DNA of 64,000 nucleotides from a virus (IMGVR_UViG_3300050190_000017); one strand, 5' to 3'; shown: positions 42,244 to 48,707, counted from the first letter of the stretch. The notes: generated by a model from the sequence alone, not told the origin. Translations and numbers: made by a program.

Positions 42244-42440
42244 AACTACATGATCGTACACGTATGGTAGCCATCGCCCAGTGTGATATTGAGCTGGGAA
42301 TATTGAAAATTGCAGATGCAAATGAGCTGACGTGTGGTGAACTTATGTCGATCTTGGGTAGAGTCCTTACTAATTTTGCTAAATATCAGATTCGAGAAGA
42401 GCGTCATGGCGACGCATCAAAGAAAGGAGATGAAGCATGA
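42240..42440 (+). CDS. Hypothetical protein
   Basis: 66 aa, coupled. Confidence 0.65.
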
Positions 42441-42886
42441 ACGATACTAAAGAAGGCATTGAAGAGCGGGTTAAGAAAGTTATCGAGTTCCAACTCGGTA
42501 CCTCCCGTCTTGAGATAAAGAACGACGCTAGGATCATCGATGACTTAGGGGCTGATAGTCTGGACTGTGCTGAACTCATCATGGCTCTCGAAGATGAATT
42601 CAACATAGAGGTTAGCGATGAGGAGGCCGAACAGTGCTCTACTGTGCAATCGATTATCAACACAATCGCAAACAGCTCCTGGGTAATAAAACCTAGGCCC
42701 ACAGAGGCAATTGCCTCTGTGGTTAAAGTTCCTTCTGTAGAAGAGGAGGTGGAAAGCATAATGCTACAGGCTTACTTCTTCGCCGTAGGCTACGAGGCTG
42801 CCGCACGCGATCCGGAAGCACACAGCAAGTCACATAAAGAATTTAAAGATCGTATTCGCACCCTTGTGGAGGCCAGCAGAAAATGA
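42437..42886 (+). CDS. acpP: Acyl carrier protein with C-terminal extension
   Basis: IEERVKKVI...DDLGADSLD (Ser41)...[24 protein letters not shown]. Confidence 0.9.
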
Positions 42887-43464: not shown

Positions 43465-43507
43465 GAAGAGGGCCACCTAAGCTAATAAAAGTTAGGTGGC
43501 CCTCTTC
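43465..43507. terminator. Bidirectional terminator between convergent genes
   Basis: Perfect 16-bp stem GAAGAGGGCCACCTAA/TTAGGTGGCCCTCTTC. Confidence 0.85.
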
Positions 43508-43512
43508 TGCTT

Positions 43513-43722
43513 TCAACAACGACAACCTCTACCCCATCCACTTGCTGCAAGGTAGGGTCCATATGGTGCAAGGTACCCACCAAGGAACGGCCCAGGGAAG
43601 AACGACCGACGCACATACGGAGTGGGGAACGCTAATCCATTGAAACCAAAACCGAACGGGGAGCCAAAGCCTCCTACGAACGGGCCACCAAAGCCACCGA
43701 AACCAAATCCGTACGGGTACAT
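43513..43722 (-). CDS. Gly/Phe/Pro-rich low-complexity peptide
   Basis: GFGFGGFGGPF repeats, ends GCRC; GGAGG RBS. Confidence 0.7.
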   Translation of the reverse strand: MYPYGFGFGGFGGPFVGGFGSPFGFGFNGLAFPTPYVRRSFFPGPFLGGYLAPYGPYLAASGWGRGCRC

Positions 43723-43723
43723 A

Positions 43724-43924
43724 TTACCTCCTGATCGCTCCGTCTATAATCCACACCTGTGGACGGGGAGCACTACTACGCCCTAGCAAGTAGGCAACGG
43801 CAAGTAAGGCCAACCCATTACCTTCAAGGAAGCTAGGACTCCGATTGGTGCAACACTGATGTTGCTGAATCAAGTTCTCAAGTTGGTTAGGTTCTGGTGT
43901 TGGGGGCACCCAGGGCCTTCTCAT
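43724..43924 (-). CDS. 66-aa protein with hydrophobic helix
   Basis: GGAGG RBS; QCC and LALLAVAYLLG. Confidence 0.7.
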   Translation of the reverse strand: MRRPWVPPTPEPNQLENLIQQHQCCTNRSPSFLEGNGLALLAVAYLLGRSSAPRPQVWIIDGAIRR

Positions 43925-43943
43925 AGTTTCCTCCCACTATCTT

Positions 43944-43972
43944 AAAAAGAGAAAGGGCAATGCTTCTGCCCT
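43944..43972 (-). terminator. Internal intrinsic terminator or attenuator
   Basis: AGGGCA-7 nt-TGCCCT followed by TTCTCTTTTT. Confidence 0.6.
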
Positions 43973-43979
43973 GTCCTCC

Positions 43980-44135
43980 TCAGACTATTGATACGTTCAA
44001 CGTTATGGGTTGTGCGTAGGTCGAGCCCCCAACACACTCCACAACCTCTTTTACAAACTCTTTTACAAACTCTTCTACCAGGTGTACCACATCCTCGATA
44101 ATATCTTCTACCTGGTGTACTAGTGGCCCTGGCAT
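43980..44135 (-). CDS. 51-aa acidic amphipathic peptide
   Basis: Hand-translated MPGPLVHQVEDIIEDVVHLVEEFVKEFVKEVVECVGGSTYAQPITLNVSIV; 12-bp tandem repeat 44046..44069. Confidence 0.6.
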   Translation of the reverse strand: MPGPLVHQVEDIIEDVVHLVEEFVKEFVKEVVECVGGSTYAQPITLNVSIV

Positions 44136-44136
44136 A

Positions 44137-44448
44137 TCACGTCACCACGATGGCGATAGGGGATACCGGTTGGTTGAACAACAGATCAGATACGTCAAAC
44201 GGCTGGGGTACTGCTATACCCAGAGGTGCCCCTGTAGAGTCCAGCGCTGTGACACTCGCGATGTACGATCCATCTTCGATACCGGTAAACGTATAAGTCA
44301 GCAGAGGAGCAGGTACGTTAGCGGTGGCCACTACAACTGGCGTAGCGTCCGTACTAAGAATCTGCATTAGCAGCATAGCACCATCTGCTACACCAGCTGG
44401 GAGTACAGCAGGAGCGGTTGTTACGGTGAAGGTTACATTACGTGCCAT
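44137..44448 (-). CDS. Small beta-sandwich (Ig/Fn3-like) protein
   Basis: ATG 44448 with AGGA RBS; YTFTGIEDGSYIASVTALD. Confidence 0.65.
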   Translation of the reverse strand: MARNVTFTVTTAPAVLPAGVADGAMLLMQILSTDATPVVVATANVPAPLLTYTFTGIEDGSYIASVTALDSTGAPLGIAVPQPFDVSDLLFNQPVSPIAIVVT

Positions 44449-44506
44449 TTGTGAAATTCCTAGAAAGTATTTATCGATCAGGAAGGCTAGGTATTTCGAT
44501 AGACGT

Positions 44507-44905
44507 TCACGAATGGATAACAACCCGAATTGAGTTAAGAACAGGAGGTATGGTAAAGATGAAGGTTGTCGTATTTATACTTGTATGCTGAATTACAGAT
44601 ATGATCTCAGCGAACGGGGCTGCTGATGAGTACACTGATTCAACTGTATCCTGAGTTCCCAAGTTGTGCGTTATAGCATAGGATAGAGCTACACCATCGC
44701 CAATCGTCTGCGCGAATCTCGCACCGCCTGTAGAGAACATAGATGTCCAGGCCGTGCCGTCCCACACAAATGGGGTGTTGCTAACTGTATTGTAGTAAAT
44801 CTGCCCTACAACAGGTGTTAAGGGAGCTGTGGCTTGGTTGTCCAAAGCCATGCTATTGATCTGGTTTTGGTTCAGACCAAGAGCTGCATAAATTTGAAGT
44901 GCCAT
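44507..44905 (-). CDS. Beta-rich protein with GQIYYNT/WDGTAW and ITHNL modules
   Basis: FAQTIGDG...ITHNLGTQD...RVVI, paralogous to 45358..45687. Confidence 0.8.
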   Translation of the reverse strand: MALQIYAALGLNQNQINSMALDNQATAPLTPVVGQIYYNTVSNTPFVWDGTAWTSMFSTGGARFAQTIGDGVALSYAITHNLGTQDTVESVYSSAAPFAEIISVIQHTSINTTTFIFTIPPVLNSIRVVIHS

Positions 44906-44964
44906 GATAGAACTCCATTAAGTTAGATTCAATGCTGCTAACTCAATAAGGCTCTTTTACATCA

Positions 44965-45276
44965 CTACATATTCAAATATGCTACCCCTGCTACTGGTGT
45001 AGAGAATACAACCAATACAGTATTAGCGTTTAGATACTGCACCTGCCCAACTATTACATTACCTGCTAAGTCGGTGGTAGTGACCGAAGGGAACCCATTT
45101 AAGTTATGCGTAATCAACCAAGAGGCTGCAGGAGTAGGTTGACTAAAGGTGAACGAAGTTACATCTACTGGTACGGTAGGTACTACAGGTCCACTGGTAC
45201 CTGATCCGCTACCAATCGATCCGCCGGTAACAGAAGGACCTTCACCGCTAATTGAACCACCAATAACGTCAGCCAT
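44965..45276 (-). CDS. GGS-leader + ITHNL module protein
   Basis: MADVIGGSISGEGPSVTGGSIG; SWLITHNLNGFPSV...AYLN. Confidence 0.8.
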   Translation of the reverse strand: MADVIGGSISGEGPSVTGGSIGSGSGTSGPVVPTVPVDVTSFTFSQPTPAASWLITHNLNGFPSVTTTDLAGNVIVGQVQYLNANTVLVVFSTPVAGVAYLNM

Positions 45277-45328
45277 GGTAACTCCATAGATTGGAACTGG
45301 CTCAGTGGGGAGAACTGGCGTCTAACGA

Positions 45329-45356
45329 TGAAGCCGGGAGGATCCTCCCGGCTTCA
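45329..45356. repeat. Perfect 28-bp palindrome
   Basis: TGAAGCCGGGAGGATCCTCCCGGCTTCA, immediately after a stop codon. Confidence 0.9.
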
Positions 45357-45357
45357 C

Positions 45358-45687
45358 TTAGGCTTCGATAACAGCCCGTGCAGCACCGGCAGCAGGTGCT
45401 GTGGTGAAGGTCAACGTCGTAACGTTAGCACTCGTGTGAACAGCAGTGTACGCCGTCGGCGGTACTTGAAGACCCGTGATCGGATTGTACACTTGAGTCT
45501 GCGTGTCCAAAGTTCCCAGGTTGTGAGTAATTGCAAACACTGTGGTAACACCATCACCAATAGTTTGCGCGTAGGTACGCACCGGTGCGGGCGTAGCCAC
45601 CCCTTCGTAATGATGCTCCTCACCAATCGATCCACCAATCACACTGGGGCCGTCCCCATGAATTGAACCACCAATAACATTAGGCAT
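45358..45687 (-). CDS. GGS-leader + ITHNL module protein
   Basis: MPNVIGGSIHGDGPSVIGGSIG; YAQTIGDG...ITHNLGTLD. Confidence 0.8.
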   Translation of the reverse strand: MPNVIGGSIHGDGPSVIGGSIGEEHHYEGVATPAPVRTYAQTIGDGVTTVFAITHNLGTLDTQTQVYNPITGLQVPPTAYTAVHTSANVTTLTFTTAPAAGAARAVIEA

Positions 45688-45727
45688 GATAACTCCTTAT
45701 AAGGTACTTACGTGTGTATAAATGAAT

Positions 45728-45910
45728 TCAACCTACGTTCGTAGGATTCGCGTTCTGGTAGCCCGTCTGCACCGCTCCGTAGTTGCCGGTGATGACAGTC
45801 TGGTTAGTTGCTTTTGACGCCTGCAGACGCATAGCACTAAGCAGGCTCATGTTACGTAGTTGAAACAACAGCTGGTCCTGACGAGCTGCAAACAGTGGTG
45901 CGCTTAACAT
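45728..45910 (-). CDS. 60-aa protein sharing the C-terminal tail of 45993..47045
   Basis: GGAGG RBS; ATNQTVITGNYGAVQTGYQNANPTNVG. Confidence 0.75.
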   Translation of the reverse strand: MLSAPLFAARQDQLLFQLRNMSLLSAMRLQASKATNQTVITGNYGAVQTGYQNANPTNVG

Positions 45911-45932
45911 ATTAGTCCTCCGTCTTTCAGAT

Positions 45933-45961
45933 GGGGTTCAACCCTCGTGAGACTGAACCCC
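45933..45961. other. Intergenic stem-loop
   Basis: GGGGTTCA/TGAACCCC 8-bp stem. Confidence 0.6.
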
Positions 45962-45992
45962 TGATCCTCCATACACCTAATCTACTTACAGA

Positions 45993-47045
45993 CTAGGCGA
46001 CGTTCGTGGGATTGGCATTCTGGGGACCAGTCTGCACAGCACCACTGTTACCAGAAATCACATTCTGGTTCGTAGCATGAGCGATCTGGGTAAGACCGGA
46101 CAAGCTAGCTGCAATTTGCGAAAGGATAGCAAACTGCTGTTGTTGCTGTTGTTGCTGTTGAGCCTGAGCAGAAGCTTGCGACACGTTCTGGCTAACAGTA
46201 ACTTCCGTGCCACGATGTGCTTCACGCATGTTGCGATCACCGCGCAGTTCGATAATCTCATTCTGAGCAGTCGTGAGCAACCGTTGCAGGTTAGCTTCGT
46301 ACTGAGCAACAATGAGGGAACGAGTCTTATCGCCGTCATCACGGATTTGATCCGTAAGAACAGACGTTTGTTGAGCAGTCTGAAGACCCAGGTTAGCAAT
46401 ACCCAACTGGGTTGCGGCACTATAGTTTGCAGCTTGCAACGAAGCACTAGAGAAACCGTTTGCTGCTTCCGAGCGACCCAGGTGAATGTTATCGTTAATA
46501 TCCTTGCGGGCTTCAACTACACCTGCCGTAATCGCGGCTTGCCCTGCGAGTTGGGAAAGCACACCTGCATGGATGTTATCGTTGATGTTGTGGCGTGCGT
46601 CTGCAACGTTGTTGGTCAGCAGGGCCGTGGAAGCAGCAACTTGCAACTGCCCTTGCGAAGCTTGGTTAGCTGCCGCCAGTTGACCTTGTGAAGCTTGATT
46701 GCCCAAAGCGATCTGAGCACCGGCGATAGCCGCTTGAACGCGACCCTCGTTCTCAGGGATCAGCTGCTGGATGGTAGCCAAGCTTTGCAGAATGTTGTTG
46801 GTATTCTGGCTCTGGGTTTGTTGATTCAATGCCGATTGAAGATGAGCAGTAGTCACAGTATCCCCAGCAGTAGCAGCCAAACCATTACGGCCACCAAAGC
46901 CACCACCCAGGCCACCGCCAAACAGAAGAGCACCGATAAGCAAGGAGCCAATACCATCCCCGCCCATCAAGCCACCGTTGTTGCCATAACCACTACCCAT
47001 GAGACCGCCAGTGCTCAGTACCGTGGGATTAACAAGATCAGCCAT
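45993..47045 (-). CDS. 350-aa Gly/Gln/Ala/Asn-rich protein
   Basis: ATG 47045 with GAGGA RBS; Gly-rich hydrophobic N-terminus, NQASQGQL x2, INDNIH x2, DGDKTRSLI, poly-Q. Confidence 0.85.
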   Translation of the reverse strand: MADLVNPTVLSTGGLMGSGYGNNGGLMGGDGIGSLLIGALLFGGGLGGGFGGRNGLAATAGDTVTTAHLQSALNQQTQSQNTNNILQSLATIQQLIPENEGRVQAAIAGAQIALGNQASQGQLAAANQASQGQLQVAASTALLTNNVADARHNINDNIHAGVLSQLAGQAAITAGVVEARKDINDNIHLGRSEAANGFSSASLQAANYSAATQLGIANLGLQTAQQTSVLTDQIRDDGDKTRSLIVAQYEANLQRLLTTAQNEIIELRGDRNMREAHRGTEVTVSQNVSQASAQAQQQQQQQQQFAILSQIAASLSGLTQIAHATNQNVISGNSGAVQTGPQNANPTNVA

Positions 47046-47250
47046 TTTGAGTTCCTCTTTAACTAGTTTAGGAGAGATCAATACAGCTATCAATCCGGCT
47101 AGTCCCGAGGCTAAGATACGTAACAGAGCCTTGTTCTATAATTCTATGGCTATCTGTCAGTCTAAAGATAAATCCTGTGTTTTGGATTTGTGTAAAATTG
47201 TGGAATGTGTGAATTCCTCTTACACATTAAAAATGCGATATGCGAATTCC

Positions 47251-47258
47251 TGTAAATA
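47251..47258 (+). promoter_or_regulatory. TGTAAATA motif
   Basis: 29 nt upstream of ATG 47288, in a divergent intergenic region. Confidence 0.6.
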
Positions 47259-47287
47259 TAGCATATACCCCACCAACGGAGTAGGCG

Positions 47288-48323: not shown

Positions 48324-48707
48324 ATGCGACAAGTCACGAGCCACAAAGTAGCAGGCAACGAAAAGAATGAACTATTTATTGCCGTAACAGACGAGCCAGG
48401 TGCCGGCGGTGCTAGCCACGAGTATGTTGCGTACTACTCTCCAGACCCAGAAGGTATAGAATACGCAAGCCCTATTGTGAATATCAATTTCCAGAACGGG
48501 CCGATCCCTGTGAATGGTATCAACGGCGTTACTCACGAAGTCCTGTTGGCAATCGTAGCAGATCGGCTTAACTCATTTCAGATTGGTCCCTATCCCTGCG
48601 CTGAGAATGATATGGCACTGCATCACGTAGTTCAAGCACTTAACTGGTTGAAGCAGCGCACTGAAGATCGTATCAAGCGTGCAGTCGAAGGTCAACTCAA
48701 AGCGTAA
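48324..48707 (+). CDS. tad1: Tad1 (Thoeris anti-defence 1) signal-sponge protein
   Basis: GAGGASHEY, INFQNG, LLAIVADRLNSFQIGPY..EN..AL.HV..AL.W...R.EDRI.R.V.G match the recalled Tad1 pattern along the whole length. Confidence 0.85.
   Translation: MRQVTSHKVAGNEKNELFIAVTDEPGAGGASHEYVAYYSPDPEGIEYASPIVNINFQNGPIPVNGINGVTHEVLLAIVADRLNSFQIGPYPCAENDMALHHVVQALNWLKQRTEDRIKRAVEGQLKA

Follow-up and report, generated by a model that had tools for sequence, protein, structure and literature searches.

An inverted gene island of a jumbo phage as a possible mobile cassette for an accessory virion fibre

A stretch of 64,000 nucleotides of viral DNA (IMGVR_UViG_3300050190_000017; hereafter the window) holds, at positions 43,465 to 47,045, an inverted block of nine minus-strand genes, which we call the island. 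Taken together, our sequence comparisons and structural models suggest, with a probability that we put at about 40%, that the island is an autonomous mobile accessory cassette that builds an extra virion fibre or appendage. We favour this reading because three of its small proteins look like fibre tips, the C-terminal part of its largest protein models as a trimer, none of its products has an evident signal peptide, related genes lie in tail-fibre neighbourhoods, and the family of the largest protein is all but confined to phages. In the arrangement that we propose, p350 would form a parallel three-stranded alpha-helical shaft of about 30 nm, with a Gly-rich hydrophobic segment at one end and a poly-Q helix and 27-residue tail at the other; p60, a helix with the same kind of tail, would be a cap or adaptor joined to the tail end of p350; p103, p109 and p132, each a leader followed by a beta-sandwich tip, would serve as exchangeable binding tips; and the immunoglobulin (Ig)-like protein and the Gly/Phe/Pro-rich peptide could be further accessory parts. 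We infer, too, an association with the virion, contacts among the proteins and a target for the appendage.

The nine genes, from the first to the last on the minus strand, are:

45996-47045, minus: p350; Gly-rich hydrophobic N-terminus (residues ~14-52), long helix (66-277), poly-Q helix (291-324) and 27-residue C-terminal tail
45731-45910, minus: p60; short helix, then a C-terminal tail as in p350
45361-45687, minus: p109; GGSI-repeat leader, then ITHNL beta module
44968-45276, minus: p103; GGS leader, then beta module (LITHNL)
44510-44905, minus: p132; mini tail-fibre-like, its N-terminal motif perhaps related to Mtd_N, its C-terminal part a beta-sandwich
44140-44448, minus: beta-rich protein of 103 residues, possibly Ig-like; 58% identity to its homologue in a close relative (L004)
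43983-44135, minus: p51; acidic amphipathic 51-mer
43727-43924, minus: p66; small protein with a strong ribosome-binding site
43516-43722, minus: p69; Gly/Phe/Pro-rich peptide with a CxC motif at its end

All nine open reading frames (43516-47045) were found where an earlier note, made from the sequence alone, had placed them. The start of p350, the ATG at 47045, matches the starts of its homologues, and that of the Ig-like gene is most likely the ATG at 44448, which gives 103 residues as in L004. The genes are tightly spaced, have a common ribosome-binding-site context and end at a common terminator. Pfam, NCBIfam and PADLOC gave no enzyme family match for any of the nine proteins, in agreement with the note's remark that enzyme motifs were lacking, and p350, p60, p51, p66, p69 and the Ig-like protein have no family in these resources or in a PDB profile search. 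Weak matches to DUF6603, CdrL_M, a type I specificity subunit and a haemagglutinin chain (E 0.11) fell below any threshold and were dropped. For the Ig-like protein the suggested fold is a language-model lead only (tail-tip J Ig-like clusters, score 0.83-0.87). No evident signal peptide was read from any of the nine sequences, which fits cytoplasmic assembly, and the open reading frames and a Pfam scan of the island gave no lysis or lipoprotein gene.

The island as a cassette in other phages

We built a small hidden Markov model (HMM) for each island protein and scanned every fetched locus with it. The order p350, p60, p103-type protein, p132-type protein and Gly/Phe/Pro-rich peptide recurs in at least five unrelated tailed-phage backbones, with L009, L010, L026 and L028 as its settings besides the relatives L004 and L027, and its neighbours are mostly tail-fibre or lysis genes. 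The conserved unit is p350, p60, a p103/p109-type protein, a p132-type protein and the Gly/Phe/Pro-rich peptide, that is, fewer than nine genes. The note's suggestion that the genes act as one functional unit is thus strengthened, as the core co-occurs in the same order in unrelated backbones, and its nine-gene unit has to be narrowed, as p66 is unique to this genome among the loci examined and p51 and the Ig-like gene are found only in close relatives (L004). The loci with the cassette or parts of it are:

L004, close relative: p350, p60, Gly/Phe/Pro-rich peptide, Ig-like protein and a 53-mer; divergent from a Tad1/Acb2-like gene
P0007 contig, further relative, seen through its gene table alone: a run of eight genes in one direction
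L009, 90.8-kb contig with a GpJ-type tail: p350, p60, p103-type, p132-type and Gly/Phe/Pro-rich peptide, right after a lysis cassette
L010, 80-kb contig: p350, p103-type and p132-type, after large tail-fibre-like genes
L012, 4-kb contig: p350, p60 and Gly/Phe/Pro-rich peptide, adjoining an Rz-like gene
L016, 44.5-kb contig: p350 homologue, then a p109-type protein sharing the GGSIHGD-repeat leader
L026, after a glycoside hydrolase family 19 (GH19) endolysin, with the lysis cassette adjoining: p350 homologue and p132 homologue
L027, another relative of this phage: p350 homologue, p132 homologue and a fused p60-tail/p103 protein
L028, E217-like myovirus: cassette as an inverted block between tail and head genes

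In L009 identities reach 52% for p60, which has the same tail, 52% for the p103-type protein and 53% over full length for the p132-type protein. Homologues of p60 come after those of p350 in L004, L009, L012 and L028; homologues of p103 with Q-rich leaders instead of GGS are found in L009, L010, L026, L027 and L028; and p132 has full-length homologues at 43-53% identity in L009 and L010 and HMM-level homologues in L026, L027 and L028. When the look-up was reversed and started from p132 homologues, a p350 homologue lay two to three genes upstream in all three new loci (L026, L027, L028). Homologues of p69 occur in L004, L009 and L012. Only the last ten residues of p51 resemble the 53-residue protein at the same position in L004, and p66, which the earlier note took for a membrane peptide although its hydrophobic stretch has only ~12 residues, has no homologue among these loci. 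Two proteins of L028 (97 and 55 residues) were considered as homologues of the Ig-like protein and p69 and dropped (BLASTP E 1.1 and 9.6). The inverted block of L028 ends (L028:6536-7499) with two G/S/T/N-rich proteins of 126 and 173 residues that bear clear signal peptides and have no Pfam match.

Could the island be a set of unrelated accessory genes carried together by chance, with no joint function? Such a reading takes its strength from the observations that most p350 homologues occur without the other cassette genes, from which it follows that p350 must also work alone, that conservation of p66, p51 and the Ig-like gene stops at close relatives, and that cassette content differs between loci. 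We nevertheless consider it highly improbable, given that the order of four to five genes recurs in unrelated backbones, that p350 and p60 have a tail in common, that L027 fuses the p60 tail to a p103 module, and that the island genes share their tight spacing, ribosome-binding-site context and terminator.

The surroundings of p350 homologues vary widely. Many are found within the structural region or where it ends, beside a collagen-like tail fibre (L017) or structural proteins of the virion (L024), ahead of the genes for terminase and portal (L020), after a 1348-residue protein with a carbohydrate-binding module (Acinetobacter phage At2) or between head and tail modules (gp38 of Iodobacter phage phiPLPE). 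Others are found among recombination and replication genes (L003 and Pararheinheimera phage KLER1-1), and one faces a lysis cassette (L011). These varied neighbourhoods lead us to regard the cassette as a transcription unit of its own that inserts at different places, as an inverted island here and in L028. In 11 of ~22 distinct loci, and not in this phage, a small basic gene is found just upstream of the p350 homologue and divergent from it (for example L003:7687-7893, L007:5338-5529, which is phiPLPE gp37, L009:6674-6934, L010:6690-6902 and L011:6673-6912). Its product is 60-86 residues long, with an N-terminal motif of the GRP type and a GNxSEGIRxAIE-like helix that is conserved; Pfam has no match for it, and it may, from its sequence, be a dedicated DNA-binding regulator; a ribbon-helix-helix label, which had come from reading the motif by eye, was given up.

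The p350 family

As judged by sequence comparison, p350 founds an unnamed and undescribed family of phage proteins, so that the island products do not all map to well-characterised tail-fibre parts. A word-indexed search gave 158 relatives, and an exhaustive profile search raised this to at least 521 clusters at 50% identity (E<=0.001), 110 of them with E<=1e-30; in the scan of IMG/VR the long p350 alignment was swamped by poly-Q patterns and an alignment of the tail alone worked. Members are mostly 180-430 residues long, and the match reaches the C-terminus of the protein or comes within a few residues of it. None of 147 members examined has a Pfam domain, and p350 itself has no PHROG match at E<0.1, no NCBIfam match and no PDB profile match below E 0.1. 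Cultured carriers are rare, with three phages among 50,697 phage records (phiPLPE gp38, KLER1-1 gp74 and At2 NNFDKGAK_00065), all with Gram-negative named hosts. Among prokaryote genomes, one for each of 185,579 species, a single 4-kb contig matches. This near-absence from bacterial genomes indicates a phage gene, mostly of uncultured phages, and no prophage conversion gene. We found no useful report on KLER1-1 or phiPLPE gp38 in the literature.

Our alignments reveal a common architecture. The N-terminal part varies and takes three forms, namely a short peptide as in p350, a helix-type extension or a beta domain of 100-250 residues. It is followed by a Gly-rich hydrophobic segment with a GxxxG pattern, a GGLFG-like motif, a long Q/N/A-rich helical region that holds conserved IPENEG and DGDKTR blocks, a poly-Q stretch and finally a tail that is almost invariant, with 68% mean column identity across distant members. 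AlphaFold predicts residues 66-277 of p350 as one helix (predicted local distance difference test, pLDDT, 80-92) with disorder at both ends. The helix has no clean heptad; heptad-like and 11-residue hydrophobic spacings are mixed. When residues 200-350 were modelled in three copies, a parallel in-register trimer was obtained with a score of 0.51, against 0.00 for the best control. Among the calibration proteins, 20 of 30 solved as one-chain pairs and 1 of 23 solved single chains reached this mark; the trimer run, with our own alignment and three copies, departs from that set-up. Contact agreement among runs was at least 66%, partner pLDDT at least 64, and contacts between equal-numbered residues extended over 201-260; the tail (320-350), disordered in the monomer, lay outside the confident interface. 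The model supports the view that the C-terminal part of p350 may form a trimeric coiled-coil shaft.

A Gly-rich hydrophobic peptide beside a trimeric coiled coil is also what suggests a likeness to class I viral fusion proteins. By this analogy the p350 family would be their phage counterpart, its fusion-peptide-like segment entering the host membrane and its tail end dressed with exchangeable beta-sandwich binders by way of the p60 adaptor, and many tailed phages would carry the whole as a mobile cassette under its own regulation, with which to penetrate the envelope, attach or lyse. We think this set of proposals, taken jointly, very unlikely.

The same segment raises the question of whether p350 is instead anchored in the host inner membrane by a Gly-zipper, its coiled coil of 30 nm crossing the periplasm, where it would serve superinfection exclusion, lysis control or completion, or envelope remodelling. 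Because of the hydrophobic Gly-rich segment, the conserved C-terminal end and the small regulator-like gene we keep such an envelope structure in play, while judging it unlikely. The segment with its GxxxG pattern is conserved, and its maximal 19-residue Kyte-Doolittle mean has a median of 1.52 and is at least 1.6 in 53 of the 147 members, near the usual threshold; yet AlphaFold leaves it disordered in p350 (pLDDT 32-39) with no membrane helix formed, and no Pfam Gly-zipper family matches p350 (E<0.1) or any of the 147 members (E<0.001), so that what p350 shares with Gly-zipper membrane proteins is the pattern and not the profile. A helix of ~210 residues would measure ~30 nm, close to the width of the periplasm, and the Gram-negative hosts of the cultured carriers agree with this, as does the divergent small gene, which suggests a product in need of expression control. 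However, the partner proteins, having no signal peptides, would be unable to meet a periplasmic p350, and in some members a beta domain precedes the Gly-rich segment. As for lysis, the p350-family gene adjoins lysis genes in L009, L011, L012 and L026, with holin-like, endolysin and Rz-like genes directly beside the cassette at L009:4894-6598, L011:8002-9707 and L026:1659-2742, an adjacency that may reflect no more than a common place where the late region ends. A role for p350 as a simple i-spanin is excluded by the separate Rz-like genes next to it in L009, L011 and L012; an Rz-like i-spanin would be the sole spanin of its lysis cassette and be paired with the gene of an outer-membrane lipoprotein, and the island has neither a lysis gene nor a lipoprotein gene.

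Beta-module proteins as candidate fibre tips

A link to virion fibres comes from p103, p109 and p132. All three match the last 60-75 positions of phrog_2647, 38707, 16122, 30556 and 10272 (E 1e-9 to 1e-22), which are annotated as head decoration, virion structural or tail fibre proteins, and their tblastn matches in unrelated phages are to genes for tail fibres and head decoration. This likeness to the C-termini of fibre and decoration proteins leads us to view them as miniature fibre-tip proteins without a shaft of their own. Together with the trimer model of p350, it also makes a virion fibre or decoration the best fit among the assembly options that the earlier note had listed.

Structural models point the same way. 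AlphaFold gives p132 a beta-hairpin motif (36-55) and a six-strand sandwich (63-131), and this model has 64 matches in BFVD at E<=0.001, with Mtd_N-containing (E 1.8e-8) and tail-fibre proteins at the top. The structural neighbours of p103 carry Mtd_N, PTL_trimer, Phage_fiber_rpt or Collagen domains. Foldseek with p132 found no match in the PDB at E<=0.001, and in a wide search with VIA-align 2 the best Z was 6.8, which the tool rates as a common arrangement; the weak, non-significant matches among solved structures were to sandwiches at the C-termini of tailspikes, pyocin fibres, and baseplate or neck proteins. One p132 homologue has PF26696 in a precomputed annotation, and hmmscan of p132 and of that homologue gives no Pfam family.

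Within the genome, tblastn confirmed the paralogies that had been claimed, with 47% identity over 73 residues between p109 and p132, 46% over 59 residues between the leaders of p103 and p109, and 77% over 30 residues between the tails of p350 and p60. The same search found no further copies of island modules elsewhere in the genome.

The shared C-terminal tail

Across their 30 codons the tails of p350 and p60 differ synonymously only at 13 and by a change of residue at 7, as expected from the module reuse with synonymous divergence that the earlier note had described, and this synonymous excess indicates that the tail peptide is under selection. Each protein has one tail unit. In L027 a single protein (L027:900-1343) consists of an N-terminal p60-like helix with a partial tail, a highly charged linker and a p103-type beta module, and among the evidence from sequence this fusion hints most strongly at a joint action of the tail-bearing piece and the beta module.

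The tails also invite a different idea, in which they, together with poly-Q and Gly/Phe-rich segments, drive self-association into an amyloid-, coat- or gel-like matrix inside the cell or after release. An N/Q/G/T-rich tail common to two proteins and under purifying selection would suit such a material, as would the GLFG-like motifs that follow the Gly-zipper in many members, the FG dipeptides in which p69 is rich, and the modelled disorder of both p350 termini. The argument is one from composition alone, and we hold the idea to be highly unlikely. The single tail per protein compares poorly with the five repeats of curli subunits, and the tandem strand-loop-strand repeats, Sec signal peptide and secretion genes of the curli system (CsgA/CsgB) all lack a counterpart in the island and related loci. 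Moreover, the tail-fibre-like beta modules would have no obvious role, the trimer model is an ordinary coiled coil, and no structural prediction speaks for cross-beta stacking. The amyloid, coat-matrix and compartment options of the earlier note, in view of the single tails and of the lack of signal peptides and secretion genes, are therefore left without evidence.

Points that weigh against an accessory fibre

Several observations fit poorly with an accessory virion fibre. No proteomic or structural data put any p350-family member in a virion, and the record of phiPLPE gp38 is without the note "confirmed by MS" (mass spectrometry), a note used sparingly there. The Gly-rich hydrophobic segment, conserved family-wide, is unusual for a soluble fibre, and the C-terminus is the most conserved part of p350, whereas ordinary fibres vary there with the host. 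In about half of the loci the small basic gene lies divergently upstream, an unexpected companion for a structural gene; in several phages the p350-family gene lies among replication genes, and here it is in the replication arm. The trimer model gives no confident placement of the tail, and the promoter motifs considered below (TGTAAATA, the sigma-70-like site and a 13-mer) indicate no temporal class for the cassette.

Relation to known systems

The closest parallels for the proposed shaft are T4 fibritin (gp wac) and the P22 tail needle gp26. They resemble p350 in a long parallel three-stranded alpha-helical shaft with short breaks, which for p350 is supported at model level only, and in a short conserved C-terminal element (~27-30 residues) with a variable N-terminus. 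However, PHROG, Pfam and PDB profile searches detect no sequence similarity between them and p350, whose N-terminus is a Gly-rich hydrophobic segment and no folded anchor, whose tail, disordered in the monomer model, is not predicted to fold like a foldon, and whose gene is a mobile accessory outside the core virion set.

For the tips, Mtd-type proteins (Mtd_N PF18454, PTL_trimer PF26696; PHROGs 2647, 38707, 8309 and 30556) share with p132, p109 and p103 the C-terminal beta-sandwich and perhaps with p132 the Mtd_N-like N-terminal motif; hmmscan of the window proteins gives no Pfam match. The island proteins differ in being very small (103-132 residues) and without a shaft, in their GGSI-repeat or Q-rich leaders, and in that the p103, p109 and p132 types always come after a p350 homologue. 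The idea of one carrier with exchangeable binding proteins encoded side by side recalls the branched receptor-binding complexes of CBA120 (TSP1-4), and TSP4 N-terminal domains are among the weak, non-significant fold matches of p132 (Foldseek E ~0.1; VIA-align Z 5.0-5.7, in the common range). In CBA120 the carrier is a tailspike, whereas the island carrier would be a coiled coil, and the island is known from genes and models.

True family members with the same Gly-rich segment, motifs and tail as p350 are phiPLPE gp38, KLER1-1 gp74 and At2 NNFDKGAK_00065. These stand alone, without p60, p103 or p132 partners (phiPLPE has gp37 instead), and are annotated only as hypothetical or, for phiPLPE gp38, as "putative tail-fiber protein". 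The three cultured phages make the p350 family directly testable.

Were the accessory fibre borne out, many environmental phages would carry a plug-in appendage kit, with one coiled-coil carrier and swappable small tips, that moves between very different virion types and lets phages gain or change attachment properties with the core tail genes untouched, and engineering would gain a compact scaffold. Independently of its function, p350 stands for a large phage-specific family without a name and with a striking architecture, whose almost invariant C-terminal peptide is conserved across unrelated phages and hosts.

Genome setting and flanking genes

The window corresponds to bases 75129-139128 (reverse strand) of a single contig of 218,861 bp. 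It encodes a large topoisomerase subunit with 63% identity to that of Ralstonia phage phiRSL1 and 56% to those of Burkholderia phages BcepSaruman and BcepSauron, and also a DNA polymerase, a primase and SbcD-like proteins. This kinship and the replication genes identify the virus as a phiRSL1-like jumbo phage whose replication region is covered by the window. A gene map of the whole genome, based on codon usage, shows two long divergent arms, and the block at 43.5-47.1 kb is the sole minus-strand break in a plus arm of ~113 kb and ~169 genes, which bears out its description as the only minus-strand block in the right arm. The flanking genes have no syntenic place in phiRSL1, and megablast of the island against the 50,697 phage records found no near-identical DNA.

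Upstream of the island, at 48324-48707, a protein of 127 residues matches phrog_2428 (E 1e-29), and two relatives have at this position a gene with the Pfam family Acb2_Tad1_hairpin, in agreement with an earlier Tad1-like call next to the island. On the other side, an acyl-carrier-protein-like gene (42437-42886) is convergent with the island, and a PP-binding gene occupies the matching position in the P0007 contig and L027, so that the island flanks are conserved in this phage group. The block of the P0007 contig is likewise flanked by a Tad1/Acb2-like gene and an acyl-carrier-protein gene.

Hairpins and upstream signals

Candidate RNA signals and the upstream control region are:

43465-43507, both strands: 16-bp perfect inverted repeat between convergent genes; strong hairpin
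43954-43972, minus: T-run hairpin between p51 and p66; looks like an intrinsic terminator
45329-45356, minus: perfect hairpin with a 14-bp stem after p109; -27 kcal/mol, z-score -5.9
45933-45961, minus: hairpin between p350 and p60, without a T-run; -18.6 kcal/mol, z-score -2.0, modest
47046-47287, minus: upstream control region of the island; sigma-70-like site at 47065-47093, 13-mer TAGAATTATAGAA at 47134-47146

The 16-bp repeat folds at -33 kcal/mol on each strand (z-scores -7.4 and -6.6 against shuffled sequence), as befits the bidirectional terminator proposed at the end of the block. Of three internal hairpins reported earlier, those at 45933 and 45329 are present and the third lies at 43954-43972, not at 43944. 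It is plausible that these hairpins tune the stoichiometry of the island products; p66 and p69 both have strong Shine-Dalgarno sites.

Sites like the sigma-70-like one at 47065-47093 are no commoner than in shuffled sequence. The 13-mer TAGAATTATAGAA has exactly two copies in the genome, both intergenic and upstream of a gene, the second ~27 nucleotides ahead of a gene of 225 codons (L025:4400-5077, minus) whose PHROG bears the annotation DNA topoisomerase. In L004 the block around the island copy is conserved ahead of the p350 homologue, with one change inside the 13-mer, and TAGAATTATAGAA may be a shared operator or promoter element; as a promoter class it was rejected, being common to just one other gene. 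The octamer TGTAAATA, by comparison, occurs 45 times genome-wide, each copy running with the genes around it (left arm minus, right arm plus) and usually 12-65 nucleotides upstream of a start codon (in the window, for example, at 47251, 53801, 24144 and 23906). It looks like a phage-specific promoter of the T4-late type (TATAAATA-like), and none of its 45 copies is on the island strand. Finally, the motif TAAACT[AG][AG]T lies 24-49 nucleotides upstream of several starts (window 37072, 47070 on the minus strand, 51434, 51862 and 52200), often precedes a ribosome-binding site of the AAAAGGAAAA type, is present in the p350 leader too, and overlaps a "start-associated leader repeat" that had been noticed earlier.

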